A DNA stretch of 64,000 nucleotides from Cenarchaeum sp. (GTDB lineage: Archaea; Thermoproteota; Nitrososphaeria; Nitrososphaerales; Nitrosopumilaceae). Both the position numbers and the translations under genes were made by a program. The stretch's first letter is position 1, and each line of letters begins with the position of its first letter. Positions 14,477 to 57,345 of this stretch are shown here, in pieces. Where the stretch lies: the NCBI GenBank assembly GCA_965242695.1, contig CBDESU010000001.1, positions 1,440,001 to 1,504,000 on the forward strand, read 5' to 3'. Below the pieces are notes generated by a model. It had not been told where the DNA came from, did not search any database, and saw only the letters and a program-made list of their open reading frames with translations.

Positions 14477-15535
14477 TCACCTTGTGGATACAAGCCATGT
14501 GATGAGCCTTTCGTATTCCTCGATCGAGTATTCGAGGGGAATCACCAGGTAGTCGCCAGGATCGGCAGGCTCGTCATCCTCGGCTGCCTCGGCATCATCA
14601 TCCTTGCTTTCCTCGTCATCTTCGTACTCTTCGCCGTCGCCATCTTCGTACTCTTCGTCATCATCATCGGGCCGCTCTTCCGTCGTCTTTGCAAACACCT
14701 TGAAGAAGGAGCGCGGGCCCGAGTGGGACACACGAAGGCACGACATCAAGTCTGGGTACTTGCCGGCAAGGTCCTTGGCCGACCTTTGCGCGTCCTGCTC
14801 GGGGAGGGCGTCTGTCTTGGTAAATACGATCGCCAGGGGATCAGTAAAGCGATTCGTCGAGTCGATACGGTCGATTCTCTCCTTGATTTTGCGAATCATT
14901 TTTATGGCGTTTACGGCCTTTGGCTTGTCCGTGTCCCAATCGCCGATCCCCTCGCAGTCGATCATCAAGACGTACTTTGTCGCGTGGACAAGGTACGCCC
15001 CGTTGCTATTTAGCATCTCCGCCACCTGCCCGTCAATGTCGTCGTCATCGTCGGCGGACTCGGAGAGGTGCCCCGAGCAGTCCTCGCCCGGCATGTCGCG
15101 CAGGACCATCTCCAGCGTTGCCGACATGCCCTTCATGCGGTGTATGTTGATCCTCAGGCTCGGATAGTCGTTCTTCACGGTCGGCGGCGGGAACGATCCC
15201 CGCTTCATGCGCCGGATCGTCTCGTTTATCTCGTCGTGGCCCGAGACCGTCTGGGCATCCCACCTGCCCCTGCTGCGCGGCACCCACCGGGTCGAGAGCG
15301 TATGCGTGACAAGCGCGGCGACCACCGTCTTGCCCGCGCCTACATCGCCCACGAATGCGATCGTGTCCCTGCCGTCGTACTCCTGAAGGGTCTCGCGTAT
15401 GAGACTGTCGACGCTGGATGCCCGCCGCACGGCTCCGGCCACCGCACCGAGTAGGCGCAGGGTCTCGCGTATGAGACTGTCGACGCTGGATGCGCCGTGC
15501 TCGGCTCCCTCCGCATGCTGTTCTGGCGTCGACAC
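14477..15535 (-). CDS. TRAFAC-class GTPase, copy 2 (carries an in-frame 72-bp insertion)
   Basis: GDVGAGKT, DMPG, TKTD; highly similar to 5139-6122. Confidence 0.8.
   Translation of the reverse strand: MSTPEQHAEGAEHGASSVDSLIRETLRLLGAVAGAVRRASSVDSLIRETLQEYDGRDTIAFVGDVGAGKTVVAALVTHTLSTRWVPRSRGRWDAQTVSGHDEINETIRRMKRGSFPPPTVKNDYPSLRINIHRMKGMSATLEMVLRDMPGEDCSGHLSESADDDDDIDGQVAEMLNSNGAYLVHATKYVLMIDCEGIGDWDTDKPKAVNAIKMIRKIKERIDRIDSTNRFTDPLAIVFTKTDALPEQDAQRSAKDLAGKYPDLMSCLRVSHSGPRSFFKVFAKTTEERPDDDDEEYEDGDGEEYEDDEESKDDDAEAAEDDEPADPGDYLVIPLEYSIEEYERLITWLVSTR
15387..15493. repeat. 35-bp direct repeat / 37-bp unique insert / repeat (period 72)
   Basis: AGGGTCTCGCGTATGAGACTGTCGACGCTGGATGC at 15387-15421 and 15459-15493. 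Confidence 0.95.
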
Positions 15536-15847
15536 GGCAGTGGGGTCCAAAATTGGCATATAATCTGTAGCATGGCCGCGGGTGCGGGATCCGTGCATCG
15601 CCCGCATGCCGGCGCCCGTCGCGGGGCGGCGGCCCGCGGCAAGAGAAGCCCCGAAGTCGGCCCGCGGCCATGGTGCGGTGGGCCTGCGCGCGGCAGCGTC
15701 GGTTTGCATGCCGCGCCGCCGATCCTTCGGAGTATGACGTAGGCGGGGATGCATCCCGCCGGCCCGCCAAGCCGCCTTCGTGCAACACCGAAGGATACCT
15801 CGACGTGATCGCATGGATTATAAAAACGGGCAACAGGTCGACGGACG

Positions 15848-16861
15848 TTGACAAAAAAGGCCATCCACTGCGACCACTTTGCGTTCGGATCGGCCCCGGC
15901 AGGCGGCAACAAGCCGTACGCGTACGGGATCGTCGCGAGGTCACCCGGCGTCGACGATCGCGTACTGCGCCTGCTCGATGGCCGCCTGTACCCTGTAGGG
16001 GTCGACCAGAGCAAGTTTGTCAGGTCGCTCTCGCTGCTTGTGCTCGACGAGGTGGTCGCGCTTACGCAGGCCAGGAACGCCGGCCACGACGGCGAGGGGC
16101 GGCCCAACTCGATATACAGCCACACCGTCCTGATCGACAGGCGCGACTTTGAGGCGATACGGTGCGACACGAGGGCGGTCACCATGCAGTGCCCGCAGGC
16201 GGAGCAGTCTGGCGACCTGCGGCCCCTCGAGATAAAGCCGCTCGACCTCGGCATGGACTTTGACAGCGCCCGGCGCCTCGGACTGGTAGGCCTGCGCCCG
16301 TTCCTAGAGGCCATGTTCTCCGGGCATAATGTGGCCATCAGGAATGCGGGCGGCGGAGCCCTGCTGCAGGGACTCCTCTCGCTGCTCCCAGACCCGCTTC
16401 GCATCGTGCCGTTCACCTCGCTGCTCCCGGACACGCCGCGCCGGCACCCCTACAGGCTGGTGCAGACGGACGCCCCGCGCCCGATGTTCGGCAGCCACAC
16501 CGTCATCAATATGGCCGGCATGTCCACCGCTACGCCCGCATCGACGATGCTGGCAAAGTGCGCCGGGCGCCTAGTGCGCATGATAGCGGACAGGGACGAA
16601 GAGGGCATAGAGTCGCTCTACGGCGACATCGGGGCCCTCTCGGGGCTAGACTACAAGGAGCGCCTCTGCGCCGCCGCAGGGGCAAGGATGTACAGCGAGG
16701 GGATGCTACGGTCGCCGGCATGGGCCGGCAGCATGGCCCGCATGCTCGACGCGGCTCCGGCAGGCCGCGCCGCGCCCTGCTTTGGGCGACTAGTGCGCTT
16801 TTTGTCGGACGGCGACCGCGCACGGTACTCGCAGAGGTACGGCGCGCCCTCCGGACCATGA
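15848..16861 (+). CDS. Divergent GAP1-N2-like protein
   Basis: YGIVARSPGV and GHDGEGRPNSIYSHTVLID parallel the motifs of 3991-5133; TTATAAAAA box at ~15818. Confidence 0.6.
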   Translation: MTKKAIHCDHFAFGSAPAGGNKPYAYGIVARSPGVDDRVLRLLDGRLYPVGVDQSKFVRSLSLLVLDEVVALTQARNAGHDGEGRPNSIYSHTVLIDRRDFEAIRCDTRAVTMQCPQAEQSGDLRPLEIKPLDLGMDFDSARRLGLVGLRPFLEAMFSGHNVAIRNAGGGALLQGLLSLLPDPLRIVPFTSLLPDTPRRHPYRLVQTDAPRPMFGSHTVINMAGMSTATPASTMLAKCAGRLVRMIADRDEEGIESLYGDIGALSGLDYKERLCAAAGARMYSEGMLRSPAWAGSMARMLDAAPAGRAAPCFGRLVRFLSDGDRARYSQRYGAPSGP

Positions 16862-17579
16862 AGCATGCCGGCCGCGCGCTCGACGCGGCAGCGTTTGAAG
16901 AGGTGCTCGGCGAGTGCGACGGCGAGCGGTGGGCAGACGCCAAGGGCCTCGTCGAGGCGCTGGTCGAAGAGAGGCCCGACGAGATGCAAGAGAATGGGAG
17001 TCAAATCCTGTCGCATGCGGCATCCCACAGAGCCGCCCAGGAAGTGGTGGACGCGTTTGCCGCATCGCACCAGCTGCGCCCTCTGATACTCGACGCGCTG
17101 AGCAGGATGCACTCCGACGATGCTTGGCAGTGCAGGGGCCTCTTCCCATGGCCTCCAAGTCGCTGCTTGCCGCCGACTCTGCGCACCTGAGGAGGCTCTT
17201 CGCAGCAGACGCGTGCGATCTGGGGTCGGACAGCGGCGCCCGCCGGTTCTGCCGCGCCGCATCCCTGGCGCTCTCGGACATCTCGATGGGATCGGACGTC
17301 GCGGCGCTGACGGATGCGGCCGAGGCGCTGCACGACAGGGTCGCGTCCGAGGCATCCCGCGCCGACGGCTCCTACGAGGAGCGGTTCCGCCACCTGCGCG
17401 TCGCGCTGGCCGGCGCCCACGACGCCCTGATCCGCAAGGTGTACGGCGCGCTGTTCCGCGGTGTGGCAGGAGGCGAGCCGGCGATCCAGAGGGCAGAGTC
17501 GACGGCAAGGAGTATTGCGGTCACCATCGACCGCATGCGCGCCCCCAGGTTCATGTCCATTCTGCCGTCCTTCCGGTGA
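16858..17579 (+). pseudogene. All-helical partner protein, frameshift near 17145
   Basis: ATGA overlap with the upstream stop; protein-like sequence continues from the frame of ORF 16558-17190 into that of 16914-17579. Confidence 0.5.
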
Positions 17580-17828
17580 ACCGCACGGCCGGTATGGCTC
17601 GCGCCAGGACTGCAGGCGGAGATTGGCCGCCAGGCGCGGCACGGCGCTGAACGCATGGCGGCCGTGGCGCATATCCCGGTGCGCGGGCTACGCTCGGGGG
17701 CGATTTCGTCGCCGCCGCGCCCTGCCGGTACGCAGGAATGCACGACGCTGCACCGGCGGGGCCCGAGTGGCCCTGTCCGGCGTGACGGCACAAGCTCAAG
17801 CTGGGAGGGACCGGCTCGGGATGCGGCC

Positions 17829-18221
17829 CTATGCGATCCGTGCTGTGACGCTGCTGGTTTTTTGCAGGATCGTGACGGCGGGTGGCTGCAGGTCCGTAGG
17901 AGTCGAACACATGGTCTTTTCGACGCTCAAGTCGCCCCGCGTGACGGGGGATGCGCGGGGGCTGCTCGCGGCGTACTTTTCCACGACCATGGCTGGAGGA
18001 TACGGCAACGGGATGTGATCGGGCGCCTCAAGCGCCCGCTCCCGGTCGCCGCGCCCCTTCTCCGTCAGCAAGCCATAGCCGCACATCTCGCAGGCCATGC
18101 CGTCAAAGGCGCCGAGCTTGACGCCGTCGTGGTACACGGGAACCAGGCGCGGCTCGAGCGGGTACCGGCACTCGGGGCAGCCGAGCGTGCCCGGCTCCAA
18201 CTCTATCGGATCCCTCTTCAT
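17829..18221 (-). CDS. YgiT/MqsA-type zinc-ribbon protein, copy 2
   Basis: CPEC...CEMCG; close paralog of 13126-13518 with a conserved promoter region. Confidence 0.7.
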   Translation of the reverse strand: MKRDPIELEPGTLGCPECRYPLEPRLVPVYHDGVKLGAFDGMACEMCGYGLLTEKGRGDRERALEAPDHIPLPYPPAMVVEKYAASSPRASPVTRGDLSVEKTMCSTPTDLQPPAVTILQKTSSVTARIA

Positions 18222-19690
18222 TGCCGCGGTGGATTTTTAGCCCCGTATAAGCATAGCTTGCGGCACTGTGCGAGGGCGCGGCATGCAAAGGCCCGGCTGG
18301 ATCGGGGCCCTGCCGCAGGTTGTATCGGCGGCTCTGTCCGTTCGGCCCGGCCCGCGCCGCTCGCGGCGGAAGATGGTGAAAGAGGGGGGCCTAGGAGGGG
18401 GCAAGGGCGCGCCCGCAAGAGTGCGAGCAGACGCCGTCGAGATCTGGCCGGCTCTTGCCGGGTACCGCATCGAGCAACGGAGTTGGCGGAGAGGGGGCGC
18501 CACACTGCCCCGTCCAAGGCCAGACGGTGGCAAGGCAGGGCGCTTGTCACCTGCGCGGCCTGCCCCGCCTCGGCCGGAGCGCGACCCGCCGGGCCATCCC
18601 GCCGCGCCCGCGGGCGCCCTGCGCACCCCCCCCCCCCTGCGGCACTCGCGCGGGCCATCGCCGCCGGCCTGCGCATGCGCGCCGGCAGACGGTCGCGCCT
18701 TCTTCAAATTCGGCGATGCGCGCCACGAACCGCGCGCACTGCGAACTGCGAGCCGGGCGCCAGAGGGGCCGCAGGGCGGCCGCACACTGCGCGCCGGGCG
18801 GCGTCCTACGCGCCCGCAGCCGCGTTTCTGCGCCCGCCGATCTGCCGCTCAACGTGCGCCGATCCAACGGGATGCGCCCGCAGGGCCGCGCGGCGGCCCG
18901 ATCTCGCCACGCCTTGGGCGCCGATGCCGCCGTGCGGCAAGCTGCCCCGCGCCGCCCCAGAGGCCCGAACATGCGCCGTGCGGCATCAGGGCTCTGGCGT
19001 GCCTTGCAAAGGATCTTGGGCCTGCCAAGCCCTTATATGCGCCCAAAGTGCGCCGGCATGCATGGGCAGATGGGAAATGCGCTGGGAGACCCGGCATGCA
19101 AACGCCGTCAAGGACTACGAACGAAAGGAGGAAGAGGGCAGGGTGCAGATGGTCGACTTGACGCAGAGGCTTGACGCCGCGGCCGGATCACGGCCCCAAG
19201 CGGAAGCCTCTTGAAGGCAAGAAGTCAGTCGACGGGCTCGATGCCGACGAAGAGCGGTATTTTTATCAACGCGAACCGCACGGGGCGCAGGACGGGCCCG
19301 CCCATCTGCGGCAGGCGGCAGCGTGCCGGCAAGCCATCCTGTGCGGAGGGCATCGCCATCCTGCTCCCTGCATCGACGGCGGCTTCGCCCTTGCAATGCA
19401 TGTCGAGTCGACTCCGAGCGCCGGCGATCTTGACCGAGCGGCGAGCTGCGCGGCATCCCGGACTTCAGAGATTCCCCCGCAGAGGCTCGCAGCCCCGGCG
19501 CGCTCGGGCCGGCCGGCCGGACGGCCGACCAGGCACGCCCGGCGCGCACTCTGCACGCAGGGGCGATCTGGACAGGGCGCAGTGCGATCGCATGCTCCCA
19601 TGCCGACATCCCGCCGCCGTGGCCGGCGCGCGGATCGCCCACGCGCCTGCGGCCGCGTCGAAAGTCATATATCACAGGGGCTGGGCGGCA

Positions 19691-20238
19691 ATGCCAGAGT
19701 ACGCAATGGACAGTCCCACCTTGGCGGAGATTTCGGACAGGGTCCCGGCGCTGGTAAAGGCCGGCATAAGGGGCCTGACCGACGACGAGAGGCTGGGCCT
19801 GGTGATAGCGCTCGCAGAGGGCGGGAGGATGACATTCTCCGAGATAAAGGCAAAGTACGGCCTCGACCCCAGCACGCTGGGCGGCCACCTGAGCGCGCTG
19901 CAGAGCGGAAACCTTGTGCGCAGCTACTACGAGAAGGGTTCGGAGGCGCATACTCGTACTACGAGGCGACCGAGCTGCCCGAGGCCGTCATAGGCGCGCT
20001 GCTCGCGTCCGTGTACGGGGCCGAGGCCGGCGAAGGGAGGCCTCCGCACCCCGGCGGTGGCTACCCGCGGGCGCTACTGGGTATGGAGGAGGGCGGCCCG
20101 AGCCGGCAGACACAAGTCGCCGCCGGGCTGCATGGTAAGAGCCACATGCAGGCTGCGGCGCGCCCGCCCCCGATCTCCATCCCTAACAACGACACGGGTG
20201 GAGAGGCGCAATTCCCAGGCCTCGTGTACAGGGTCTGA
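19691..20238 (+). pseudogene. ArsR-like winged-helix regulator, frameshift at ~19937
   Basis: ERLGLVIALAEGGRMTFSEIK...PSTLGGHLSALQSGNLV, then YSYYEATE in another frame; TATA-like box at ~19667. Confidence 0.7.
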
Positions 20239-21299
20239 AGCAGGGAGGCGGCGGAGCCATGGCGGCCGCGTGTGCGGCGCCCCTCTTGCGTGCGAGGTGC
20301 ACGGCAAGCAACAACAGGACGGACAGGGCAGGCAGGGACAAAGCAAAAAAATAAGTAAAAGGACGAAGTTAACCGACATTCGAATGAAGGCGTCCACTGG
20401 GAAAGCGGCGCCTTCGAGATGGCTCGCCACTGCGCGCATATAGGCACATCTCGCGGACGGGGCAGATCCTAGGCGCGGCCACCCGCCCCGCCCCCCGCCC
20501 CGCCCCGCACAGCCCCCCCCCCCACGCGGCGCAGCGGGGCGGGATGTCGGAGGGTTGCAAGCCGCGGCGCGGCCGCTCCGGCGGGGCCTCGTCATACCCG
20601 CCTCACATCGTCGCATCCGATGGCGGCATCGCCGACGGGGCGCCTGCACCGCGGCGCCGTCGGCTTCCCGCTGCGCACCGGGCTCGCGCCCCGGCCGGCT
20701 GACGCGCCGCGTAGGCCGAGCGCGCACGGCATGCGGGCTAGGCCAGGCCACCGCCCTTATAGCACGCCCCAGCGGCCTTGGCTGCGTGGAGTGTGTCGGG
20801 ATCGAGGAGTTTGACGGGCCAACGCGCGAGCAGGCGGACGGACTCGCAGGCCAGCCCAATGGGCGCCCGCTACGCGAATGCCCGTCCCCGGACGAGCCTA
20901 GAAAGGCGGCAGGGCCAAGCCATGGCGAGTGCGAACACTGCAGTCTCGGCAGGCTGTACCCCTCGCCCATGGCCTGGCCCCGCGGCGCGCCACGGGGCGG
21001 GGCTGCAGGGCGCACCGGCCTGCCCGCCGGCAGGCGGCAGGCGCATGCGGGCGCAGCCGAGGAGATGGGCGGTATGATAGCCCCTGGCAGGATGCAGGGA
21101 CGTCTGATGCCCTGCACGTCCAGGACGCGCAGTCACCCCCGCATGCGCGACATCTGCACACCCGCCGAGTTTGGGCAGGCCGCCGGAGAAACAGCACGGT
21201 GCACCCTGCGGACTACCCGGCCGACCGGGGCGCCTCGAACGATCCCGCCCGGGGCGCCGACAGGCAGATCAGGGCACAGGCGGGTGCGAAGAGTCCGGG

Positions 21300-24133: not shown

Positions 24134-25264
24134 CTAGCCCCGGCGCCGCCGGCCGCGCGCGGCGCGCCGCCGGCCGCCCTGCCGATCCCCCTCGCCGCGC
24201 CGCTCCACGTCGAACCCGCCGGCCTCCAAGAAGCCGAGTATGTGCCGCACGGACAGGACGTCGTCGCGGTTGTACTCTAGGACGGACGGATCGATCGGGG
24301 TGCCGTCTGCGACGTGCCTCTCGAACGCGAGCGCCGCGTCCAGGCCGTCCATGCCAGAGTGTGCAAAGCCGTAACCGAGCACGGACCCGAGCGTCTTGAG
24401 AGCGTACGACTGGCACGGGACGGCGAATGCGCGCCGGACGAGCGAGCATGCGTCGATGTGCCGCATCGATGCAAACGCGCCCGGCTCGATGCCGTTGCGC
24501 GCCATTGCCGCCGCAGTCACCCTCTTGTCAAAGCCCGTCCCAGAGTATGCGACTAGCGCCGAGCACCCGTCGGACTGGATCGACCCGAGGTGGTCGACAA
24601 ACTCGGAGAGCAGGCGCCGCGCGCCGCGCTCCCGGCGGCTGCGAAACGCAGACCAGCCGGCTCCCCCGCCTCCCCCGCCGGCGCCCATGTCGACCATGAA
24701 CTGCTCTATCCTGCCGCGGTGCAGCACGCCGATCAGCCAGACCGCCGTCGATGCCGTGTCCGTCTCGATGTCGAATATGGCCATCTCCTCGTCCGGCGGC
24801 AGGACCATGTGGGACCGCTGTATGACGCGGTTCTCGGCGGCGGCGCGCGCCTTTGTCCGGGTGCGCTCGATGAACGACGCGGGCAGGCCCGACAGGGAGG
24901 CGGCGGCCCGCACGTCGGGCACGCGGGCCATGTCGTCGACCGTGCGGATGTCGGCCCTGTGCAGTCCGTACTCGCGCGAGTAGCCGACCCCGTGCAGCCA
25001 CGTGACGGGCCACGAGCCGAGCGAGCCCGGGTCGCCGAGGGGCCTGACAGGGAACGGATGGCTGCCGTCCGGCGGCGCCCGGGTCGTCCGGCGGACGATG
25101 CGCGCAGGCGGGCCGTCGTCATCCTTGGAGCGGCCGGCCGCGCCGCCTTTCGCTGCCGATGGCTGGTCGGGCGCGTCAGCGACGGGGGTTCCGAGGATGC
25201 TAAGGTGGCTGTAGGATGCGGGGGGCACATAGGGCGCCACGCCGCGCCGCCTCGGTGCGGGCAA
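24134..25264 (-). CDS. RNase_H_2 (YprB/TM0106-like) DEDD exonuclease with HhH-like N-terminal part
   Basis: IFDIETD, YSGTGFD, ID..SLVRR, SYALKTLG, YNRDDV motifs; start uncertain. Confidence 0.8.
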   Translation of the reverse strand: MPAPRRRGVAPYVPPASYSHLSILGTPVADAPDQPSAAKGGAAGRSKDDDGPPARIVRRTTRAPPDGSHPFPVRPLGDPGSLGSWPVTWLHGVGYSREYGLHRADIRTVDDMARVPDVRAAASLSGLPASFIERTRTKARAAAENRVIQRSHMVLPPDEEMAIFDIETDTASTAVWLIGVLHRGRIEQFMVDMGAGGGGGGAGWSAFRSRRERGARRLLSEFVDHLGSIQSDGCSALVAYSGTGFDKRVTAAAMARNGIEPGAFASMRHIDACSLVRRAFAVPCQSYALKTLGSVLGYGFAHSGMDGLDAALAFERHVADGTPIDPSVLEYNRDDVLSVRHILGFLEAGGFDVERRGEGDRQGGRRRAARGRRRRG

Positions 25265-25289
25265 TTAACCCGTTGCGGCGGCTGCAGGG

Positions 25290-25395
25290 CGGACGGCAGT
25301 GGCGGCAGGGCCACAAGGGGTAAACAGGATGGCGGCGCTGGCCGCGGGATCTGGCCGAGTCGGGCGGCAGTGGCGGCAGGGCCACAATGGGCAAA
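25290..25395. repeat. 35-bp direct repeat (3 mismatches) / 36-bp insert / repeat (period 71)
   Basis: CGGACGGCAGTGGCGGCAGGGCCACAAGGGGTAAA (25290-25324) vs CGGGCGGCAGTGGCGGCAGGGCCACAATGGGCAAA (25361-25395). Confidence 0.85.
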
Positions 25396-25663
25396 GGCGG
25401 CGCGCAGATGACGGGCGGCAGGGCGTGTTCGAGGCGACGGGGCGGAGAAGAGGGCGCACATGTGCCTCAAGCCTGCCAGTAGACGAGCAGTCAGGCGTGG
25501 CACGAAGGCGTGGGCCGCAGGCGTGGACATACGCCTCGATCATACGTTGCGATCGCAGGCAGTGAAACCTAGGCACTTGTAACTATACGATCACATCTGA
25601 TCTTATAATCAGGCGTCAAATTCAGTGATTAACATATATAATCACCGTGTCCGATCGGAAAGC

Positions 25664-27625
25664 GTGAGTAAGACCACCACGGTGGATATAACGCCCGACA
25701 AGAGCCTCATGCAAAAGATAGGCGCGGTCGGCTACAGGACGGAGCAGGCCATCTCCGAGTTCATCGACAACGCCATCGATGCGCGCCTGCCAGGCGAGGC
25801 CGAGCGGGTCAACGTGTCGCTGGACTTTGTAAACCGTACTATTACCATCTCCGACGACGGAAGGGGCATGACGCTCGAAGAGCTGCAACGGGGCCTCACC
25901 ATAGCAAAGGGCAAGGGCGGCCCTGCGCTGGCTGCCGCAGGCCTGGGAACGTTCGGCATCGGCCTCAAGAGCGCCTGCGCCGCCCTAGGCAAGTCGTTTA
26001 CGATAGTGACCTCGACCGAGGGATCGAAGGCAGAGTACGTCGTCGAGTACGACGAGGACAGATGGCTGCGCGACGGAGATCTCGGCTGGGGCAACTTCGA
26101 GGTGTCGACGAGGCCCCGCACCAGTGCCCACCGCGGCACGGCCGTCTCGATCTCGCGCCTAAAGGTGCCGCTGTACCCGAACCAGACGACCACCTTCAAA
26201 AAGAGCTTTGGTGTGAGGTACGGCGCATACCTGAGTTCCGGCCAAGTACGGTTGTACGTGAATTCTAGGCCCTGCAAAGCGGCCGAACCCGACATCAAGG
26301 ACGGGAGCCGCAGGGACCTGAAGATTCCGCTGAGTAACAGGAAATCCATGCGCGGGTGGATTGGACTCCTCGAAAAGAGGTCGATCAAGGGCGACTATGG
26401 AATGCACCTGTACAAGGACGGTCGCCTGATAAGGGCGTTCGACAAGTTCGGGATGCGCAGACATCCCGAGGTGGCCAAGGTGATTGGCGAGTTGCATATG
26501 GATCACGTACCGGTCAACTTTCACAAGTCCGGGTTCCTGACGGAGTCGTCCGAGTATGCAGAGTGCGTCGATGCGTTCAGAATGCATCCAGAGGTGGGGC
26601 ACATCATGCGGAGTGCCTCGTCGAGAGCGGAGTCGCAACAGCCAGACTCCCTAGTGCAGTCCATCCTAGACCATACCAGTGGGGGTGCCGCAGGGATTCC
26701 ACTGGGACGCGTTGGACGGGACCGGGCAGGGCGCATCATGAAAGAGTTCACTGGGCCGTACATGACAACTGGCGCAGCAGGTGCATTTGAGGTCGTATTC
26801 AGGGACGGCGCCGACGACGACCTATATGAGATAAACATGCCAGAGTCAAGAGTCGGATCGCCGTATAGGATAGCCATCAACAGGAAGAGCCCCGTGTTCA
26901 GGACGGCCAGCAACCCGCTGTTCCTAGTCGGCATGATCAGGGCAGAGGCCGAAATGCTCGCATCTGCTGGCGACGGCGCCGGCGACATGGCAAATATGGT
27001 AAAGAGGCGCAATGTGCTCTGGTGCAAGTTTGCCAAGGACTGGTCGGCTCCGGCCACGCCGCGCCGCAAGACGGACTTTGTCACACGGAAACGACAGCAA
27101 CCACGACTTCCAGGCTACGGACTGGTCAGCGAGCTTGTCGAGATGCACGACCTAGTCTACGAGAAGTTTGCCGATCCATTCCAATTCACTGCGCTCAGCA
27201 CGCTAGCGAGGTTCCTGCACAACGAGTATACAATAGTGCCGTACCACATAGTCACGGAGAAGGGCATGGGCGAGCGCCTGTGCGATCTTGTAAAAAAGTA
27301 TTGGGGCGGCGAAGTCGTAGCACTACTGAACCCCGGCGAGGTCGAGGCGCGCACCGCAATGGATATCTCGGACAAAGGCAGACTCATCGTGGTCAGGGAA
27401 TACGCAGGACCGGCATCCGGAACATGGGCCAGCCCTGCAAAGGCATGGCTGGACCTAGCGTCGGAGTGCAAGAAGGCATGGATGTCAGGGTACAGAGACG
27501 AGCTTGCAGGGATACTTGGGCGGTTGCTCGAGGACAACCTAGTCGAGGTGTCCGCGATCAGATCCGCCGCCAAGAACAGAAGAATGGCAGGCATAGTAGA
27601 CGACTGCATAGGTGGGACATATTGA
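25664..27625 (+). CDS. GHKL (HATPase_c_3/MORC-like) ATPase with a C-terminal AbiEi-antitoxin-like domain
   Basis: EFIDNAIDA, DDGRGM, GTFGIGLKSA, GTAV motifs; C-terminal FTALSTL...ASPAKAWLDL; TATATAA at ~25635. Confidence 0.75.
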   Translation: MSKTTTVDITPDKSLMQKIGAVGYRTEQAISEFIDNAIDARLPGEAERVNVSLDFVNRTITISDDGRGMTLEELQRGLTIAKGKGGPALAAAGLGTFGIGLKSACAALGKSFTIVTSTEGSKAEYVVEYDEDRWLRDGDLGWGNFEVSTRPRTSAHRGTAVSISRLKVPLYPNQTTTFKKSFGVRYGAYLSSGQVRLYVNSRPCKAAEPDIKDGSRRDLKIPLSNRKSMRGWIGLLEKRSIKGDYGMHLYKDGRLIRAFDKFGMRRHPEVAKVIGELHMDHVPVNFHKSGFLTESSEYAECVDAFRMHPEVGHIMRSASSRAESQQPDSLVQSILDHTSGGAAGIPLGRVGRDRAGRIMKEFTGPYMTTGAAGAFEVVFRDGADDDLYEINMPESRVGSPYRIAINRKSPVFRTASNPLFLVGMIRAEAEMLASAGDGAGDMANMVKRRNVLWCKFAKDWSAPATPRRKTDFVTRKRQQPRLPGYGLVSELVEMHDLVYEKFADPFQFTALSTLARFLHNEYTIVPYHIVTEKGMGERLCDLVKKYWGGEVVALLNPGEVEARTAMDISDKGRLIVVREYAGPASGTWASPAKAWLDLASECKKAWMSGYRDELAGILGRLLEDNLVEVSAIRSAAKNRRMAGIVDDCIGGTY

Positions 27626-28754
27626 AGTCCAACCTACTCGAAGGAATAGAGAGGGCGACGATCATGCAGATCGCCGAACGCACGGTTTTCGCGATCCGCA
27701 TGTCATAGAACAACTATTCGTCGATTTTGCCGCCCACGAGCATGTGTCAGCGCGCCTTCCCTGCACCGTCTTCGGCGGCATGTGCATGCACCTGCATGCA
27801 GAGGGAACGGCACAGAGGCTCAGTCGCGATGTAGACATCATGACAACGGCGTCCGTAGACGACGTCAGCAGGGCTGTGCAAGACGAATTTGATCCGATAC
27901 CAGACTGCCAGATAAGTTCGGTCTCTCCTCGACACCCCCACCCGGTGAAAAATCTCCAATCACACCACATCCATTACGAATCGTGTCTAGGAGGGGAAGG
28001 AGAGGTGAAGATGGATTTTTTGTGCGAGTTCGCGAACAGCTTGCCTACTGAAGTGGTATACGTGCCACATGTGCTCGGAACCGAGCGGCCTTTCAAGGCG
28101 CAAGTGCTGACAAAGGGCGCCTTGCTTGTAGACAAGTCCACCACGCTCGCGCTAGGCGGGATAGGGCTTCCCGAGTGACGCCTCCGCGAAGCGCCAAAAC
28201 AGGTGTACGACATAGCAACGCTGATCCGTATGGTGGATGAAAACGAGCTAGGCTCCGCCCTAGGCATGCTAGACAATGCAATTACATCACGGATCAGCAT
28301 ACACAAACTCACCGAAAACATTACCGTGCCGAGCACTATTGCATCCATCCAAAGATCTTTAGAAAGCTTCCTCGATTTCAAATCCGCCGCCATCATGTCA
28401 AAGCAGTACAAACAAAATCTTGGGAATTTTAGGAGCAAGTATCTACGCAACGGCGGGGATCAATATCAGAAGCACGAAAGAATAGACGACCTTTTCACCG
28501 CGATGTTGTTTAGCGTAAGTGCAGGCAATGTAGTAAGCGGCGCCATGTCTGCCAACGAAGCCGCAAAAGAAGTGTCAAGTCGCATGGCAGAGGCACGTAA
28601 CCCTCCGCAAGACGCAAGTCCAAGTTCGGTGAACGCCATGAGGCATAGCTTACGGAGCATCTTGTCGCACAAGGACGTGAGCAAGGGGTTTCTTTCTAGC
28701 CTATCACAGAGTCAGCTAGCTATGCTAGAAGCCGCATATACAGCCACGTCATAG
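27622..28754 (+). pseudogene. AbiEii/DUF1814-like nucleotidyltransferase toxin, disrupted
   Basis: FGGMCM..RLSRDVD, DK..TL and KQVYDI motifs. TTG overlaps the upstream stop; frameshift at ~27685 and in-frame TGA at 28176-28178. Confidence 0.75.
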
Positions 28755-28828
28755 CAAGTCATGATGGTTAAGCTAACATCCTAATCGCCGGTGAATCCGC
28801 ATGGGGCAGTTCAACGTCCATGCGCCGC

Positions 28829-29350
28829 TCAGCGGCGCAGCGAGCCGTCGACGTCCCTGCCGAGCTCGCGCATGACCCTGGCAAAGTCGGACGCATTCTC
28901 GCCCGTGTGCCGGAGCGAGCCGGACTGTATGTCGTACAGCCGCTCCACCTTGCAGAGGCCGTCGCGTATGGAGGCTGCAAGGCGCTTGCCCCGGCCGCCG
29001 AACCCCGCGGCCAGCTCGCTCGCCTCGGCGTAGCAGTTGCGTATCTCGTGCAGGACTGCGAGCGTCTCGACGTCGGTCGGGCGCGGCAGGGTCGCGACCA
29101 GGAACGTGATGCGGGCCGTCATGTGCTCTAGGCGCCGCAGGCGGATCTCGTCCCTGCGCGAGCGCACTGCCAGGACGACGGCCGCAATCCCGATCGCCCC
29201 GATTGCGGCCGCTGCGACGGGCCACGTGCCGGGATCGGATGCGGCGATCAGTGCAGTCGACAGGACCATGATCAGGCAGCCCGCAACGAACAGCACGCCC
29301 CACCGCGGCGCGCGCCGGCGGCGCGGCCTTGGCCCATCGTCGCCGTTCAC
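28829..29350 (-). CDS. Hypothetical membrane protein (2 TM helices + helical tail)
   Basis: WGVLFVAGCLIMVLSTALIAA and WPVAAAAIGAIGIAAVVLAV segments. Confidence 0.6.
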   Translation of the reverse strand: MNGDDGPRPRRRRAPRWGVLFVAGCLIMVLSTALIAASDPGTWPVAAAAIGAIGIAAVVLAVRSRRDEIRLRRLEHMTARITFLVATLPRPTDVETLAVLHEIRNCYAEASELAAGFGGRGKRLAASIRDGLCKVERLYDIQSGSLRHTGENASDFARVMRELGRDVDGSLRR

Positions 29351-29522
29351 GGGACTGCACCGGCATGCGGCCGCTAAAAACGGTTGCACGGCCCTGCCCG
29401 TCCGCCCCCGCGAGGGGTCGTTTTGCATCCGTCCCCTGCCGCGGCGCGGACGGAGGCGCATCGGAGGGCAGGGATGGATGTATGATCCCGCATCTGGTGC
29501 GATCGAAGCGAGCGCCGGCGAT

Positions 29523-29632
29523 CGCGGCGCATGGGAAAGGGAGCCATGGCCTCTGCCAGTGCGCCTGTCGTCGGCGATTGCGACGAAGTGATCGCGCGGC
29601 GCATGGGAAAGGGAGCCATGGCCTCTGCCAGT
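29523..29632. repeat. 38-bp direct repeat / 34-bp insert / repeat (period 72)
   Basis: CGCGGCGCATGGGAAAGGGAGCCATGGCCTCTGCCAGT at 29523-29560 and 29595-29632. Confidence 0.95.
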
Positions 29633-30044: not shown

Positions 30045-30139
30045 GGCAGCGTAGTGGCCTCAAAGTGCGCATTTGTCGGCAGCGTAGTGGCCTCAAAGTG
30101 CGCATTTGTCGGCAGCGTAGTGGCCTCAAAGTGCGCATT
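30045..30139. repeat. Perfect 33-bp tandem repeat x ~2.9
   Basis: Unit GGCAGCGTAGTGGCCTCAAAGTGCGCATTTGTC, no spacers. Confidence 0.95.
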
Positions 30140-30190
30140 CGGATGCGAGATGTGCAACTATACATAGAACGCATCCCCCAAGCGCACCCG

Positions 30191-32763: not shown

Positions 32764-32859
32764 GCCCGGCGCGATCGCCTGCACTCCGCCTCCGCCCGCC
32801 CCTACCTCCGCCCCCGCGCCGCCCCTGCCCGGCGCGATCGCCTGCACTCCGCCTCCGCC
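32764..32859. repeat. 33-bp direct repeat pair (period 63) upstream of dndB copy 1
   Basis: GCCCGGCGCGATCGCCTGCACTCCGCCTCCGCC at 32764-32796 and 32827-32859. Confidence 0.9.
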
Positions 32860-32985
32860 GTCCCCCTGTCCGCCCTTGCCCCCTCAAGCCGCGCCCCGCG
32901 CACGCCCCGCCGCGCCTGCAACGTGCGTCCAAGCGGTACGGCGCACGCCGAAGCATTTATCAACACGCCCCCTGCGCGCCAAATC

Positions 32986-48379: not shown

Positions 48380-48586
48380 GCTGGAAACGGCCAAGTGGCA
48401 TATATAAAGAACATGGCAGTCTGTTCATGGCGCCTTCACTCCGCAGAGCGCGCGTGCAGAGTGCCGCAGAGCGCGCGTCCACCCCCCCCCCCCCCCCCCC
48501 CCTCCCCCCCCTCCAAGGGGCAGGCGACAGGGGCACAGCATAGGCAGTATCCGCGACATAGCGCCTGACATACTCGTCTGCTGCGC

Positions 48587-49136
48587 CTAGTCGGGGAGAA
48601 CTGGCGCACATCGTGCGGCGCCGATCGGCTCGGGGCGATACGGCGCGCCCCGCCTTGTAGAGTCCACCATGTCGCAGGATCGCATTTCGAACCCGTGCCG
48701 CTCGCCGCCGCGGGCGCTGTGAACCGTCACGGTGTCGGCTATGGAGAACGGTGAGAGCTTTCCAATCCCGTTCCGCCCCATGACAAGCCGCCCCTTCTTC
48801 GGCGTCCTGCCGCTCGTCCTGCTTGTACGAGCCGTTATCGATGTCGCCCCCATGACAAGCCGCCCCTTCTTCGGCGTCCTGCCGCCCCCTTCCTTGCGGC
48901 GCTCGCATCCGACGCGCAGGTACTTTTCGTTGACGTCGGCTGCGGTCATGCCGCATCCGTCGTCCTCGACGGCGATCCTGCCGCCGCCGATCGATATGTC
49001 ACGCGGCCGGCATCGGCATCCCACGCGTTGGCCACCGCCTCCGACAGGCATCCGGCGCGCCGCCGTGCAGTCTGATCCAGAGGTGCCTCAATGCGGCAAG
49101 ATCCAGCGCCATTTTGTACTCGTCAGTAGCCGGCAT
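48587..49136 (-). pseudogene. Truncated, frameshifted HATPase_c_3 (GHKL) gene
   Basis: ANAWDADA, EDDGCGM, YLRVG, MGRNGIGKLS pieces spread over several frames. Confidence 0.8.
48776..48885. repeat. 38-bp direct repeat / 34-bp insert / repeat (period 72)
   Basis: CCCCATGACAAGCCGCCCCTTCTTCGGCGTCCTGCCGC at 48776-48813 and 48848-48885. Confidence 0.95.
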
Positions 49137-52227: not shown

Positions 52228-53129
52228 TCCGCCTCGACCTCGTCCGCCAGCTGGCGCAGGACGTCGGGGTCCACGTCGCCGATGTCAGACTCTAGCATCT
52301 CGAATATCTTGAGGGCATCGGGATCGCTCTCCAAGATGCCCCGTATCTTTTCCCCAAGCGCGGAGGAGTTGTCATGGCCGCCGCCGCCAGAGTCGGGCAC
52401 GTCTACCTGCCCGTCCGCCTGCGCTGCGGGTTGCTCGCCCTGTCCGGCATCCCCGGCCGCGGATCCGGCGCTCCTGTACCACGGGTCGTGCCCAAGCTTG
52501 TCGAGAAAATTCTCCCACGAGTCGAATTCGTCGTCGTATGCTCCGGCGCCTACCGGCGAGGCTTTTTCAAACTCGGCCTTGGTCGGCACCCTGTCCAGGT
52601 TCCATTTGACCTTCTCAAACTCGATCAGCAGCGATATCTTGTTCGGCGGATCGATGTCGTATGCAAGGTCCAAGAGCTCGCTCACGTCGCCGAACTCCTC
52701 CCGTAGGCTGCTGATCATGCCGGCAGGGAGGTAGCCGGCGCCCGCCCCCACTACGTCGTCCCGGCTCTCAGGCATGGCGGCGGCCAGTCCCTGGAGCAGG
52801 CCGGCGCGCTGCCGGTTAAAGTAAGACAGATCGACGCTGGATGCGCCATGGTTTTTCTGTCCTGCGCCGGCACGGCGCGCCGCCCCAGGCCGCGGCTTGT
52901 ACCGGACGATGCGCCGCCTCGCCTGCAGCTTGTGCTTGCAGCACCGGCAATGCCAGCCAACCGTGCCGGCCGCCGCAATCGTGCCGTCCTCTAGGCGGGC
53001 CCCCTTTGCATCGACCCAGACGTCGCATATCTGGCACCGCGCCTGCCCTTCTCCGTACTGGCCCGTCCCCGCAGGCTTGTCCGCTGCGTATTTTCGGCAC
53101 GTTCTGCGGCAAACCGGCCTGCGGCCCAT
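52224..53129 (-). CDS. Zinc-ribbon + HNH-associated-repeat protein, copy 2
   Basis: Paralog of 47465-48379; TTTATA box at ~53153-53158. Confidence 0.7.
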   Translation of the reverse strand: MGRRPVCRRTCRKYAADKPAGTGQYGEGQARCQICDVWVDAKGARLEDGTIAAAGTVGWHCRCCKHKLQARRRIVRYKPRPGAARRAGAGQKNHGASSVDLSYFNRQRAGLLQGLAAAMPESRDDVVGAGAGYLPAGMISSLREEFGDVSELLDLAYDIDPPNKISLLIEFEKVKWNLDRVPTKAEFEKASPVGAGAYDDEFDSWENFLDKLGHDPWYRSAGSAAGDAGQGEQPAAQADGQVDVPDSGGGGHDNSSALGEKIRGILESDPDALKIFEMLESDIGDVDPDVLRQLADEVEAD

Positions 53130-53521
53130 GCGGGAAGCGGCCAGGCGGCGCGTATAAAGAGCATTCTGGACGGTCAGGGCGGCGACCGTTCGGGGGTGGG
53201 GCGGCCTGCGGGCGCCCCAAGGCGGCGGCAATGTCCCCGCCCGCCCCTGTCGGGCCGAGTTGACGGCCACCACCTCGAGCCCGCCGTCGCCCCTATGGCG
53301 CCGAACCTGCTGGCAAGCGCCCTCCCGAACGGAGTTCCGCAGACGGCGCGCCGCAGATCCGCACATGCCCCCGCAGAGGCCGCGCGCCCTGCAAGGCGCC
53401 CGCAGTGTCGGTCGCCGCTGCCGGACAAGGGGATGCGTCGCGCCGGCGTCCCGCTGTGCCGATGCGTCGCGCCAGAACTGCCATGTGCGTCGCGCGTGCA
53501 GGGCGCCGGCCCCCCGGCCGC

Positions 53522-54700
53522 CTACCCGCCCAAGAACCGGCCGAGCGATGCGACGGCGCCTGCGACCAGGTCGGCGGCCCTGCCCGCATCCTCGTCCGTG
53601 GTGAACCTGCCGAGGCCCACCCGTATCGACGAATGGGCTCGCGCCTCGCCTAGGCCCATCGCCAAGAGGACGTGCGACGGCTCTACGGACTGCGCCGTGC
53701 AGGCAGAGCCGGCCGATATGGCCAGATCCTCGGACACCGAGTTTATGACGGCGCGGCTCTCTATTCCCGGAAAGCACACGCTGACGTTGCGCGCAAGGCG
53801 CCGCGTGCGGTGGCCGTTGAGCAGGCCGCCGGCGGCCTCGAACGCCTTGATCATGCGCGAGGCCTGCGCGGCATGCCGCCTGTTCTCGGACTCCATCTCT
53901 TGCGCCGCAATCCGCGCGGCCGCCCCAAACCCCACTATTCCCGGCACGTTGAGCGTGCCGGATCGTATCCCGCGCTCCTGCCCGCCGCCGCGCAGCAGCG
54001 GCCTTGCCGCCACGCGCGGCCGCAGCCCCCTCACGTACAGCGCGCCGATCCCCTTTGGCCCGTACATCTTGTGCGCCGATAGCGACATCATGCCGACTCC
54101 CGCCCGCTCCGCATCGACGGGCATGTGGCCTGCCGCCTGCGCCGCGTCCGTGTGGAACGCCACGCTGTGGTCGCGCGCGATCCGGCCGATCGCCGCAATG
54201 TCGTGAACCGTTCCAACCTCGTTGTTGGCCGCCATTATGGAGATCAGCGAGGTCCGGCTGGTAACGGCCGCCTCTACGCCGGCAGGATCGGCAAGGCCGT
54301 CCTCGTCGACTGGCACGCGCGTCACGTCGGCCGCGCCGGACGCCTCTAGGTGGGCCGCCACGTCGAGGACCGCGCTGTGCTCGGTCGCGCAGGTTATGAT
54401 GTGGGGACGGGCCGCATCGCCCCCTCTGCCGTCCGCGCCCTGCACCGCCCCGACAAGGGCCGTGTTGTTCGACTCTGTCGCCCCGCTCGTGAATACGATC
54501 TCGGTCGCGCTCCTGGCCCCGACCAGTTCCGCGACCTGCTCGCGCGCCCTTTCGACGGCTTCGGCCGCTGCCGCCCCGTACGCGTGGTCGGCGCTCGACG
54601 CGTTGCCAAACTCGTCGCCAAAGTACGGCAGCATCTCTTCTAGGACGCGCGGGTCGACGGGGGTCGTCGCGTGCGAGTCGAGGTAGATCGGGCGCGTCAT
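53522..54700 (-). CDS. dndA: Cysteine desulfurase DndA/IscS, copy 2
   Basis: YLDSHATT, SAHKMYGPKG, SAGSAC. Confidence 0.92.
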   Translation of the reverse strand: MTRPIYLDSHATTPVDPRVLEEMLPYFGDEFGNASSADHAYGAAAAEAVERAREQVAELVGARSATEIVFTSGATESNNTALVGAVQGADGRGGDAARPHIITCATEHSAVLDVAAHLEASGAADVTRVPVDEDGLADPAGVEAAVTSRTSLISIMAANNEVGTVHDIAAIGRIARDHSVAFHTDAAQAAGHMPVDAERAGVGMMSLSAHKMYGPKGIGALYVRGLRPRVAARPLLRGGGQERGIRSGTLNVPGIVGFGAAARIAAQEMESENRRHAAQASRMIKAFEAAGGLLNGHRTRRLARNVSVCFPGIESRAVINSVSEDLAISAGSACTAQSVEPSHVLLAMGLGEARAHSSIRVGLGRFTTDEDAGRAADLVAGAVASLGRFLGG

Positions 54701-55160
54701 GGATCGCCGCCGCCCTTGCCGCCCCCCGGCGCCCCGTCTCCCGCCCCCGGCGCAACATCGGCGTCCTCCCCGCCCGCCGCCGCCGCCGCCGCATCCTCGC
54801 AGCCGAGCAGCCTCGCAAAGTCGCCGAGACCCCGCACGCGCGGGAACAGCATCCCGGCGCCCCTGTTCAGGTGCGCGCGCATCATGCGGTCGGCGTACAT
54901 TGCAAGGTCAAGCCCGTCCTCGTCGAGGCGGCACCGCAGGGCCGCCGCGTACGCGGCCTCGTGCTCGCCGAACAGGATATGCGGGAGCAGCTCCATGCCC
55001 TTTTCGTCGTACAGGTCGGGGTTTGGCACGGTCTCGTCTGCGAGCGACATGCAGATGCCGAACCTGGCAAGGACGTTTATCGGCAGGCCGGTGCGCGACT
55101 TTAGCTGGCCTAGCTGGCTCTGCGAACGCATCGACATGCGGACGCGGTCTAGCCGGTACA
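54697..55160 (-). CDS. dndE: DndE, copy 2 (start uncertain)
   Basis: QLKSRTGLPINVLARFGICMSL...RAHLNRG. Confidence 0.85.
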
Positions 55161-55162
55161 GC

Positions 55163-57345
55163 CTAGGCCCCCTCCCCCTCTCTCGGCCCTGCCCTGCCGC
55201 CGCCCCTGCCGGCCCCGCCCCCGCCGTCCCCTGCTCTGAGGGGGCCGGCCCCGGAGACATGGGCAAAGCCGCCGCCCCTGCCGGCCCCGCCCCCGCCGTC
55301 CCCAAAGTACCCCTCCCGGACGGCGCTCCGGCGCCCGTCCCCGTCGAACTCGATCACGTACGCCCTCGCCACGCGCGGCCTCAGCCGCGCGTACTCGGCG
55401 GGCCCGATCTCGCGGTCCGTCGAGAGCAGGACGGTCTGGTGCGAGGCCGACGGGTAGAACCTGTCGACCAGGTTCGAGAGGTGCGCGCCGTCGAGCCGGC
55501 CGAGCGGCGTGTCGATCACGAACGGCAGCGGCCGCCCGCTCGTCTTTGCAATGGCCCACAGCAGGGCCGTCCCGATCATCTGCTGCTCGCCCATGGACCG
55601 GAGCGGGACGGGCTCGTCGATGCCCTCTTCGTACGCGCCGACCTCTAGCGTCTCCGGGTCGACTACGATGCGCTCGACGCCGCCCTTGTGGAGCAGGACG
55701 GAGGCGACGGCGAGCAGGTTCTCCTCCAGCTCGCGCATCTTGCGGGCAAGCAGGCCGCCGCGGTACGTCGCCAGCGCGGCCTTCATCCGGCCGGCGAGTG
55801 CGACGCCCTTGTCGGCGCGCTCGTCGCGGCGCATCTCGTCGAGCAGCTTCTTGAGGCGGTTTCTGACGACCTTTAGGTTGGCCTGCCTTGCCGACAGGCG
55901 CTGCCCCATGTGATCGATCTCGGCGCGCAGCGTGCCGATCTCGCGGTGCGCGTCCCGTATGCCCCGCACGCGGGCGGCCATCTCGTCGTCCGACGGGGCC
56001 CGCGCAAGGCCCTCGACCACCTCCTCTAGGCGCGCCTCGGCGGCGGCAAGCCCTGCAAGCTCGCCGCGCAGCGACGGCGGGGGAAACGAGGCGGCCGCGG
56101 CGGCCGCAGTGCGCACGGCGGCCGCCTCTTCCTCGGACACGTCGAACAGGGGCGGCGCAGAGTCGCCCGGGTCGTGCCGGAACATCTCTTCCAGGCGCCG
56201 CGCGATCAGGTCGGCCGCCCTGTCGTCGGCCCTCCCGCCGGGCCAGAACGAGTCTGATCCCATCTCGCGGCGGAGCGCGTCGATCTTTGGGATCGCATCG
56301 GCCGCGGCCGCTGCCGATCGGGCGGCGCCGGCGTCCGCATCGATGCGCGAGACGGCGCGGCCGAGCAGGTCCGATGCCAGCGCCAGCGGGGCCGCCCCCG
56401 ACAGGGCCTCGCGTACGGCCCGCTCGTGCCCGCGCAGGCGCTCCTCAATGGCGGCCTTTTCTGCCAGCAGGCCGGCGCGCAGGTCGGCGTACCCGCCGCC
56501 GGCGCCCCTGATCTTTTGCTCCTCCTCTGCCACATGCGCCTCGGCGGCCTCCAGCTGCCCCCTCTTTGATTGCACCTCGGCCTCGAGCGACTCGACGCCG
56601 GCCACGAGCGCGTCGCGCTCGGCCATCATGTCCTGGTACTGCCTGTACGCGGGGCCCTGTTCGCCGCCGCTGTCGCCGCCGCTGCGCCCCGCCCTCCGCG
56701 CCACGTACAGGTCGAGGTCGGCAGAGAGCCTGTCGACCAGCTCGGCGCCGAGCAGCACGTCGAGCGACTCGCGCATCGGGTTGGGGCCCGCGCCGCCGCT
56801 GCTCCCGCCGGCCGCATCCGCGGCCCCGACGATCTTTTCGCCGTCAAAAAAGAACAGCCGCGCGATGCCGAGCGGTACGAGGCCCTCGACGAACGCCTGC
56901 CACTGCGACTCGTCCGTGTCGGCCAGCACCCAGCCGTTCCTCTCGACGCGCAGCGACTCGGAGACCGCGCGGCCTCCTCCCCCTCCGTCCGAGGGATCGG
57001 CCGCCTCCCAGCTCCGCACCACCCTGTACAGGTCCTCGCTGCCCGCATGCCGGAACCTAAACGACAGTGCTACCGAGGCCGCGCGCGCCCGTTTTCCGCC
57101 CCCCCCCCCCGTGATTTATGGATGCGCGATAGTACGAACGCCTCGTACTCCTTTGCCGTCGTGCGCCTGCCCAGGTGCGCCCGGCCGTACAGGGCGACCA
57201 TCATCGACTCTAGTACGGTCGTCTTGCCGGCGCCGTTGAGCCCGCCGATCAGCACTATCGGGCGGCCCGGCCGCACCGACAGGTCGAACCGGTTCGTTCC
57301 GGCGTACGCGCCGTAGTTTTCGATCTCTAGTCCCTCGAGGAGCGT
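55163..57345 (-). pseudogene. dndD: DndD copy 2: ACG at the expected start, frameshift in a G12 run
   Basis: ACG-LLEGLEIENYGAYAG...GLNGAGKTT, shift at 57099-57110, then FFFDGEK and IDTPLGRLD. Confidence 0.85.
55196..55303. repeat. 36-bp direct repeat / 36-bp insert / repeat (period 72)
   Basis: GCCGCCGCCCCTGCCGGCCCCGCCCCCGCCGTCCCC at 55196-55231 and 55268-55303. Confidence 0.95.

Follow-up and report, generated by a model that had tools for sequence, protein, structure and literature searches.

Integration of new spacers away from their usual target has been described for several adaptation complexes of CRISPR systems. In Escherichia coli, off-target ('non-canonical') integration in a type I-E system yields neo-CRISPR loci, according to the portions of the literature that could be consulted (Nivala, Shipman and Church 2018, Nat Microbiol 3:310, cited in PMC7054753, bioRxiv 10.1101/148544 and PMC6698737). 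These were rare events, detected by deep sequencing under overproduction of Cas1-Cas2, and the consulted part of bioRxiv 10.1101/148544 speaks of 'circumstantial evidence' in two other species. Pyrococcus furiosus Cas1-Cas2, as excerpted from PMC6698737, carries out off-target full-site integration in vitro through paired attacks one repeat-length apart and with a strong guanine preference at the attacked position. The type I-U (now I-G) Cas4/1-Cas2 of Geobacter sulfurreducens, in the available text of PMC6547450, acquires spacers mostly of 36 bp, selected by an upstream TTN protospacer-adjacent motif (PAM), and works with a repeat whose last bases are AGC. In Streptococcus thermophilus, 'ectopic spacer acquisition' takes place, in the accessible sections of PMC7999890 and PMC5338259, away from the leader-proximal repeat and within the array. 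Described here is a 64,000-nucleotide stretch of archaeal DNA, referred to as the window (G000:C1:1440001-1504000, part of a 3.89-Mb genome of two contigs, C1 and C2, with 67-68% G+C), which contains five scars consisting of a duplicated chromosomal segment wrapped around an unrelated insert of spacer length. These scars, together with others like them throughout the genome, are very probably natural full-site off-target spacer integrations made by the genome's own type I-G Cas4/1-Cas2.

All five loci named in a preliminary description of the window were found where it had placed them, both by a repeat finder and by reading of the sequence (Table 1). They share one geometry, a unique insert of 34-37 nt between duplicate copies of 35-38 nt with a period of 71-72, and each insert occurs once in the window. 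Sequence comparison of the duplicated segments at the five loci revealed no kinship among them or with the native CRISPR repeat. Since the copies at scar 2 differ at 3 of 35 positions, this scar represents an older event. To place these loci in the context of the whole genome, local direct repeats were counted by period, given a length of at least 28 nt and an intervening unique stretch of 10 bases or more. Before removal of the native array a large spike stood at periods 70-74, most of it contributed by that one giant array. With the array removed, the spike that the preliminary description had anticipated was found at periods 70-73, where 10, 28, 55 and 10 gapped repeats were counted, respectively, against a background of 0-2 at periods 61, 62, 64, 65, 76, 77 and 79 and of 3-8 at periods 67, 68 and 80. 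Multiples of three form a background of their own, with 19 repeats at period 60, 10 at 63, 6 at 66, 10 at 69, 6 at 75 and 5 at 78, and a few of the period-72 cases are for this reason probably ordinary coding repeats. At a looser identity (at least 26/34) the excess above background amounts to some 130-140 events over periods 67-74. Elsewhere in the genome, at C2:330949-332011, about 15 units of 72 nt lie head to tail without unique spacers, their period being equal to the CRISPR unit length.

Curation for two-copy units with a duplication of 30-44 nt, a period of 68-75, at most four mismatches and an insert unlike its flanks retained 96 sites, at 47 of which the two copies are identical. The periods are 72 (42 sites), 71 (25), 73 (8), 70 (8), 68 (6), 69 (5) and 75 (2), and the duplication length has its mode at 36. 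Insert-to-flank identity stays below 0.45 at every curated site and mostly between 0.2 and 0.4, the chance level at this G+C content; the value of 0.43 at locus 1 is the highest among the five loci of the window. Six rows were then removed: C1:1840307, 1840671 and 1840980, which belong to one repetitive ORF (open reading frame), C2:22547 (paralogous copy), C2:265845 (coding tandem repeat) and C2:312248 (CRISPR-like relic). The last of these, C2:312248-312355, is a pair of copies at period 68; their CRISPR-like repeat has the 3′ end of the native one (...GCGGCCCCATTGAAG) on a different stem, and the pair is probably the relic of another array. The 90 remaining sites correspond to about one scar per 43 kb genome-wide, so that the density of one per 13 kb given in the preliminary description holds for the window and not for the genome.

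The period of the scars coincides with that of the native array. This array (C1:1072723-1096404) comprises 330 copies of a 36-nt repeat, and among its 329 spacers lengths of 36 nt (121), 35 nt (77), 37 nt (66), 34 nt (30) and 38 nt (28) prevail. Because the native periods run from 70 to 74 with a mode of 72, the ectopic unit length equals one native repeat plus one native spacer; the proposed comparison with the native array thus brought agreement in geometry (36-nt repeat, spacers of 34-38 nt). The only Cas1 match in the genome lies in a 653-codon ORF without internal stops that encodes a Cas4/Cas1 fusion (Cas4g/Cas1g, NCBIfam score 688.3 bits, cut-off 560) and adjoins Cas2 and the array leader. 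On the far side of the array from the leader lie Cas3g (602.7 bits, cut-off 400), Cas8g2 (111.2, under its cut-off of 125), Csb1/Cas7g (142, cut-off 38) and Csb2 (219.6, cut-off 45). By this predicted gene content, the CRISPR-Cas complement of the genome is a single type I-G (formerly I-U) system. A candidate enzyme, for which the preliminary description had offered no identity, is accordingly available in the Cas4/Cas1 fusion plus Cas2 beside the native array, about 345 kb from the window. The motif residues of Cas4 and Cas1 are unchanged in 7/7 aligned proteins of relatives, which rules out inactivation of Cas4 as the cause of promiscuity. A DDE transposase ORF at G000:C1:1064465-1065820 (L001:10465-11820) adjoins csb2 at the end of the cas operon. 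Two of the 329 native spacers match the genome, both as perfect self-matches, with protospacers at G000:C1:975632-975669 and G000:C2:698844-698878. They are the 10th and the 84th spacer from the leader, and TAA (TTA on the other strand) lies directly downstream of both protospacers; from this motif placement, the two cases look like spacers in a flipped, non-interfering orientation. Foreign protospacers did not turn up: a search of a phage collection with one 902-nt piece of the native array returned no match.

Evidence for an origin at a distance comes from the inserts themselves. Eleven of the 90 match other genome sites over nearly their full length, with an identity of 97-100% in five cases, 94% in four and 89-91% in two. 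The insert of locus 5 is identical at 36/36 positions to C2:1313517-1313552, on the other contig and in intergenic DNA beside an ArsR-type gene. The preliminary description had named decay of adjacent sequence as an outcome that would speak against integration; these 11 inserts are instead copied from elsewhere in the genome. Three of the sources are multi-copy elements, and in two cases sources are paired, no more than a few kilobases apart, at C1:1523.6 and 1526.9 kb and at C2:698.8 and 706.0 kb. Two independent spacers thus stem from each of the regions G000:C1:1523600-1526905, which holds an arginyl-tRNA synthetase gene, and G000:C2:698844-706077. The latter is situated beside cdc6/orc1, includes the target of one native spacer and may be a replication origin; both regions could be hot spots of fragment capture. 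Self-derived spacers are far more frequent at ectopic sites (11/90) than in the native array (2/329; Fisher p=1.4e-6), an excess that fits autoimmunity purging the array alone.

The scars are distributed as expected for insertions filtered by selection. Of the 90, 12 lie inside genes and 7 across a gene end; the other 71 are intergenic, a share to be compared with about 24% of the genome (p=3e-28). Inside predicted genes the period is divisible by three in 11 of 12 scars (ten of 72, one of 69), in keeping with the earlier claim that genic hits remain in frame, as against 30/71 intergenic scars (p=0.0016) and 126/329 units of the native array (p=0.0002). Most genic scars lie no more than about 50 residues from a protein end. 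In the window, scar 1 adds 24 residues just ahead of the Double-GTPase-2 domain; scar 4 falls within the GHKL ATPase domain of its ORF, which has 96 residues aligned to 66 PF13589 profile positions; and scar 5 sits at the C-terminal tail of DndD, just past residue 604, where homology to DndD ends. Loci 2 and 3 are situated outside any predicted gene, locus 3 with just weak Pfam matches under cut-off, which amends the coding context given previously.

Table 1. The five scars of the window and the predicted genes in which three of them lie (positions in the window).
Feature	Coordinates	Strand	Copies	Insert	Period	Remarks
Scar 1	15387..15493		15387-15421 + 15459-15493 (35 nt, exact)	15422-15458 (37 nt)	72	
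Scar 2	25290..25395		25290-25324 + 25361-25395 (35 nt, 91%)	25325-25360 (36 nt)	71	
Scar 3	29523..29632		29523-29560 + 29595-29632 (38 nt, exact)	29561-29594 (34 nt)	72	
Scar 4	48776..48885		48776-48813 + 48848-48885 (38 nt, exact)	48814-48847 (34 nt)	72	
Scar 5	55196..55303		55196-55231 + 55268-55303 (36 nt, exact)	55232-55267 (36 nt)	72	
Gene with scar 1 (Double-GTPase-2)	14480-15817	minus				PF19993, E 9.3e-12; scar in frame, residues 109-144
Gene with scar 4 (short remnant ORF with GHKL ATPase domain)	48590-49087	minus				PF13589; scar in frame, residues 68-104
Gene with scar 5 (DndD)	55166-57115	minus				PADLOC DndD, E 3.6e-115; scar in frame, residues 605-640

Three further features of the window stand apart from the scars. 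A perfect 33-nt tandem repeat of 2.9 copies occupies positions 30045-30143, and a run of C of about 30 residues (48482-48511) is found 265 nt ahead of scar 4. A 39-nt duplication with a period of 63 is located at 32764-32865; contigs of the metagenome run X1 differ at this place, skipping 87 nt with 18 other letters between.

The choice of target is loose yet not random: the sites are G+C-rich, G prevails at the attacked positions, and AGG stands upstream at about a quarter of them. Duplicated segments have 77% G+C compared with 67.5% for the genome. At the opening base of the duplicated segment, the nucleotide attacked on either strand, G stands at 58% of 180 ends against a background of 34%, and the junction GG|G was observed 25 times where 4.5 were expected. 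A leader-like AGG junction, in which an AGG on one or both sides ends either at the junction or one base inside it, is present at 21/90 sites and at 7.4% of random positions (p=2e-6). The native leader ends in CAGG in G000 as well as in the relatives G004 and G017, and in GAGG in the relative G002; the AGG junction recurs at 7/28 scars of G002 (p=0.0016) and at 1/15 of G004, which is not significant. Inverted repeats, which the preliminary description had pointed out in several duplicated segments, occur at chance level, a stem of at least 5 bp being present in 34% of the 90 sites and in 31% of 5000 random 36-mers from G000.

Scars are also clustered, with 9 pairs within 500 bp where 1.1 would be expected for uniform placement and 2.8 for placement in intergenic DNA only. 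At C2:173431 one 36-nt segment occurs three times around two different inserts, with an overlapping further duplication-plus-insert alongside, and G002 likewise carries a three-copy, two-insert unit. Taken with the clustering, these three-copy units look like site re-use, the first step toward a new array. In this hot spot (G000:C2:173431-174025; L077:610-1230) another unit follows 300 bp further along, adjacent to a 52-nt tandem array.

Sites that lack the insertion have been found for two loci of the window. Locus 1 is empty in the sponge metagenome run X1, where a 1063-nt contig (about 2.6% diverged) joins position 15383 to 15456, skipping exactly 72 nt and keeping a single copy of the segment. 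Locus 4 is empty in the homologue from G002 (flanks about 81% identical), which has one 38-nt segment where G000 has 38+34+38. The search for empty sites proposed beforehand has in this way produced single-copy alleles differing by 72 nt at both loci. No informative empty-site relative was found for loci 2, 3 and 5, and a DNA search with locus 3 in 30 relatives gave just two short weak matches. A contig of run X5 covers 24935-29552, and with it locus 2, with 0 differences; X5 is possibly the source sample and so does not constitute independent support. At locus 3 the X5 contig breaks off within the first copy (position 29552), which is normal behaviour for k=31 unitigs that meet an exact repeat. 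Runs X1 and X4 leave parts of a 20-kb stretch (about 25.7-29.0 kb) without cover. Several other candidates for empty sites were set aside. The scar at C1:1645958 has a G004 counterpart whose protein is about 28 residues shorter there, but DNA homology is lost at the first copy. At G004 site 154940 it is a larger block of 137 nt that is absent from G000, and at G002 site 359635 the G000 counterpart looks empty in a fuzzy alignment; the former was not counted as an empty site and the latter not as an exact one. At G000 sites 844270, 861308, 785889, 895908 and 1136762, compared with the G004 and G002 samples, either the length difference was not 70-73 or one flank was absent.

The organism is an ammonia-oxidising archaeon, as indicated by Cdc6/Orc1, PcrB and an archaeal AmoA (E=2e-118), and the metagenome runs that contain the sequence bear sponge labels. 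Scars in its relatives were counted in 400-kb samples. Within the genus, G002 (3.2 Mb, 71% G+C) and G004 (3.7 Mb, 68% G+C) both encode Cas4/Cas1 and have an array of the same 36-nt repeat beside cas2; they yielded 28 and 15 curated scars, respectively. Congener G001 (2.0 Mb, 57% G+C) has no Cas1, and no unit at periods 70-74 was found in it. A further congener without Cas1, G003, falls outside the sampled set. Across the genus, the three bearers of Cas4/1 have genomes of 3.2-3.9 Mb with 68-71% G+C, and the two members without Cas1 have genomes of 1.8-2.0 Mb. In the leader-proximal part of the G004 array (L013:3020-3290) the first repeats are irregular, with a truncated repeat copy and 'spacers' of 6-8 nt, which suggests aberrant integrations within the array.

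These findings can be accommodated in a simple scheme. The integrase, carrying a piece of DNA some 36 nt long, would attack chromosomal DNA outside the array by two staggered attacks about 36 bp apart. Gap repair would then duplicate the stretch between the attacks, leaving a copy-insert-copy structure with the native unit length of 72 nt. Because their 'repeats' are unrelated to the native repeat, the scars would not be processable as CRISPR units and would escape selection against autoimmunity; they are presumably not expressed. They would accumulate where little harm is done, namely in intergenic DNA, at gene ends and at in-frame positions. Off-target integration by Cas1-Cas2, as put forward in the preliminary description, is supported by the period spike, the native geometry, the enzyme genes, the insert sources and the empty sites, and Cas4/1-Cas2 is the likely catalyst, on support that is correlative in kind.

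Several observations weigh against this interpretation. For 79 of the 90 inserts no source exists in this genome, and among the nine readable sources a TTN PAM is found at one, in either orientation, so that the common PAM looked for at the suggestion of the preliminary description is not apparent. Likeness of the targets to the native leader plus repeat is marginal (16.9 versus 16.5 matches of 45, p=0.04). Compared with native units, intergenic scars fall short by a mean of 0.74 nt (71.24 versus 71.98, p=7e-5), and some exact duplications span 30-35 nt only; either the ruler is therefore less strict here than at the array, or the ends have mutated. In X1, the single copy at locus 1 is preceded by three bases that read like those ahead of the second G000 copy rather than the first, and the insert agrees with the right flank at 10 of its first 15 bases; the exact junction history of this event is therefore ambiguous. 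The metagenome comparison was made with contigs, which break inside exact repeats, and covers loci 1 to 3 of the five. The counts by gene context depend on a crude codon-usage finder (2742 genes, 76% coding, a rough figure). Finally, G017, which belongs to another genus of the same family (4.3 Mb, 39% G+C), has a Cas4/1 fusion and a similar array of 36-nt repeats yet not a single site in 400 kb. The integrase thus appears to be necessary but not sufficient for scarring, and further contributions presumably come from G+C-rich DNA, from host factors or from selection being weak in expanded genomes.

Ordinary tandem duplication or slippage of 72-nt (24-codon) units, the second halves of which have since diverged, would account for the resemblance between insert start and right flank at locus 1 and would draw on the multiples-of-three background, which is real in G000. 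It would leave unexplained why periods 70, 71 and 73, none of them a multiple of three, are strongly enriched too, and how copies can be identical at 47 of 96 sites while the likeness of the insert to the sequence after the second copy is at chance. Moreover, 11 inserts come from other places, the other contig included, and the spike sits at the native CRISPR unit length and is absent in G001 and G017. Slippage is largely refuted for the set as a whole, and for locus 5 it is refuted outright by the source found elsewhere; as a general explanation it is very improbable. Hardly any probability attaches, likewise, to another fixed-ruler integrase or repair process whose match to the CRISPR unit length is a coincidence. 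Such a process gains from the scars being seen as sequence rather than as catalysis in progress, from G017 and its Cas4/1 without scars, and from sources devoid of the PAM of the subtype. Against it, there is a single Cas1-family gene and no second candidate was seen in the genome; the duplication mode of 36 and the inserts of 34-37 nt both match native repeat and spacers; the junction preference mirrors the native leader end; and the three scarred congeners all carry Cas4/1, whereas the sampled Cas1-less G001 is free of scars.

Remnants of ordinary CRISPR arrays, or mini-arrays carried by mobile elements, would produce two-copy units as well, and the excluded unit at C2:312248, whose CRISPR-like repeat has the native 3′ motif, is a case in point. 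The duplicated segments of the scars, by contrast, show no relationship among themselves or with the native repeat and consist of host gene or intergenic sequence, and at loci 1 and 4 the flanks run on into homologous DNA with one copy only. For the five loci of the window their sequences already refute such an origin, and it is extremely improbable overall. That the scars are assembly or consensus artefacts of one long-read assembly has next to no probability. It is true that the short-read unitigs of the strain stop inside exact repeats and that loci 1 and 3 are unbridged by an independent contig. A like pattern nonetheless occurs in the assemblies of two other species, avoidance of genes and in-frame retention are not expected of artefacts, inserts match distant genomic sources exactly, and the X5 contig, albeit from a run that is possibly the source sample, covers locus 2 without a difference.

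Off-target integration by the native Cas4/1-Cas2 consequently remains the favoured explanation, and several consequences would follow from it. The natural frequency of off-target Cas1-Cas2 integration, its cost and its role in seeding arrays are open questions, which the scarred genomes make testable: roughly a hundred events per genome have been fixed in at least three species, with sources, empty sites and selection footprints visible. The scars allow one to read by what rules a Cas4/Cas1 integrase chooses its targets in vivo (G at both cut sites, AGG, a slack ruler of about 36 bp), and they also inform on the uncensored share of self DNA, on the fitness filter acting on insertions and on the earliest stage of array birth. 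In genomes with active adaptation modules, two-copy 'CRISPR-like' matches may be scars rather than arrays. A broader proposition, to which slightly less than an even chance is given, is that the type I-G integrase of this sponge-associated ammonia-oxidising genus is a chronic mutator of the whole genome, its scars serving at once as a log of capture, as in-frame insertions and as births of arrays, under loosened specificity and weak selection. If so, the scars would record, in nature and largely uncensored, the DNA captured by Cas4/1-Cas2, with at least 12% self DNA and no PAM selection; they would supply proteins with in-frame insertions of 24 residues; and the three-copy, two-insert units at leader-like AGG sites would be the first steps of de novo CRISPR array birth. 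Their accumulation would then reflect loosened target specificity in G+C-rich DNA combined with purifying selection that is weak in the enlarged genomes of symbionts.

The literature searched yielded no account of natural scar sets on a large scale, although natural cases or site lists in Nivala et al. 2018 may overlap with the present set. Compared with the E. coli neo-CRISPR loci, as far as the consulted excerpts describe them, the scars share the duplication of a repeat-length target around a spacer-length insert outside the array, and the three-copy units fit the seeding of arrays. They differ in being fixed in natural genomes, at about 90-140 per genome and in three species of one archaeal genus, in involving a type I-G Cas4/Cas1 fusion, and in displaying selection for intergenic and in-frame positions. 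G at 58% of ends, spaced about 36 bp apart, recalls the guanine preference and paired attacks of the P. furiosus enzyme; the passages available on the latter concern a plasmid assay with a spacing of 30 bp and repeat-like sites, whereas the present sites are natural, chromosomal and of marginal likeness to the repeat. With G. sulfurreducens, going by the available text, the system has in common the gene set and order (cas4/1, cas2, leader, array), spacers mostly of 36 bp and a repeat ending in AGC. In that text (PMC6547450), TTN-selected spacers enter the array and off-target integration goes unmentioned, while here the self-derived ectopic inserts show TTN in 1/9 cases. The ectopic acquisition of S. 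thermophilus, in the sections accessible, occurs at genuine array repeats, unlike the unrelated chromosomal sequence targeted here. The off-target chemistry is thus known; what appears to be new is its natural, heritable and lineage-wide occurrence on a large scale, in archaea and with a type I-G fusion enzyme.

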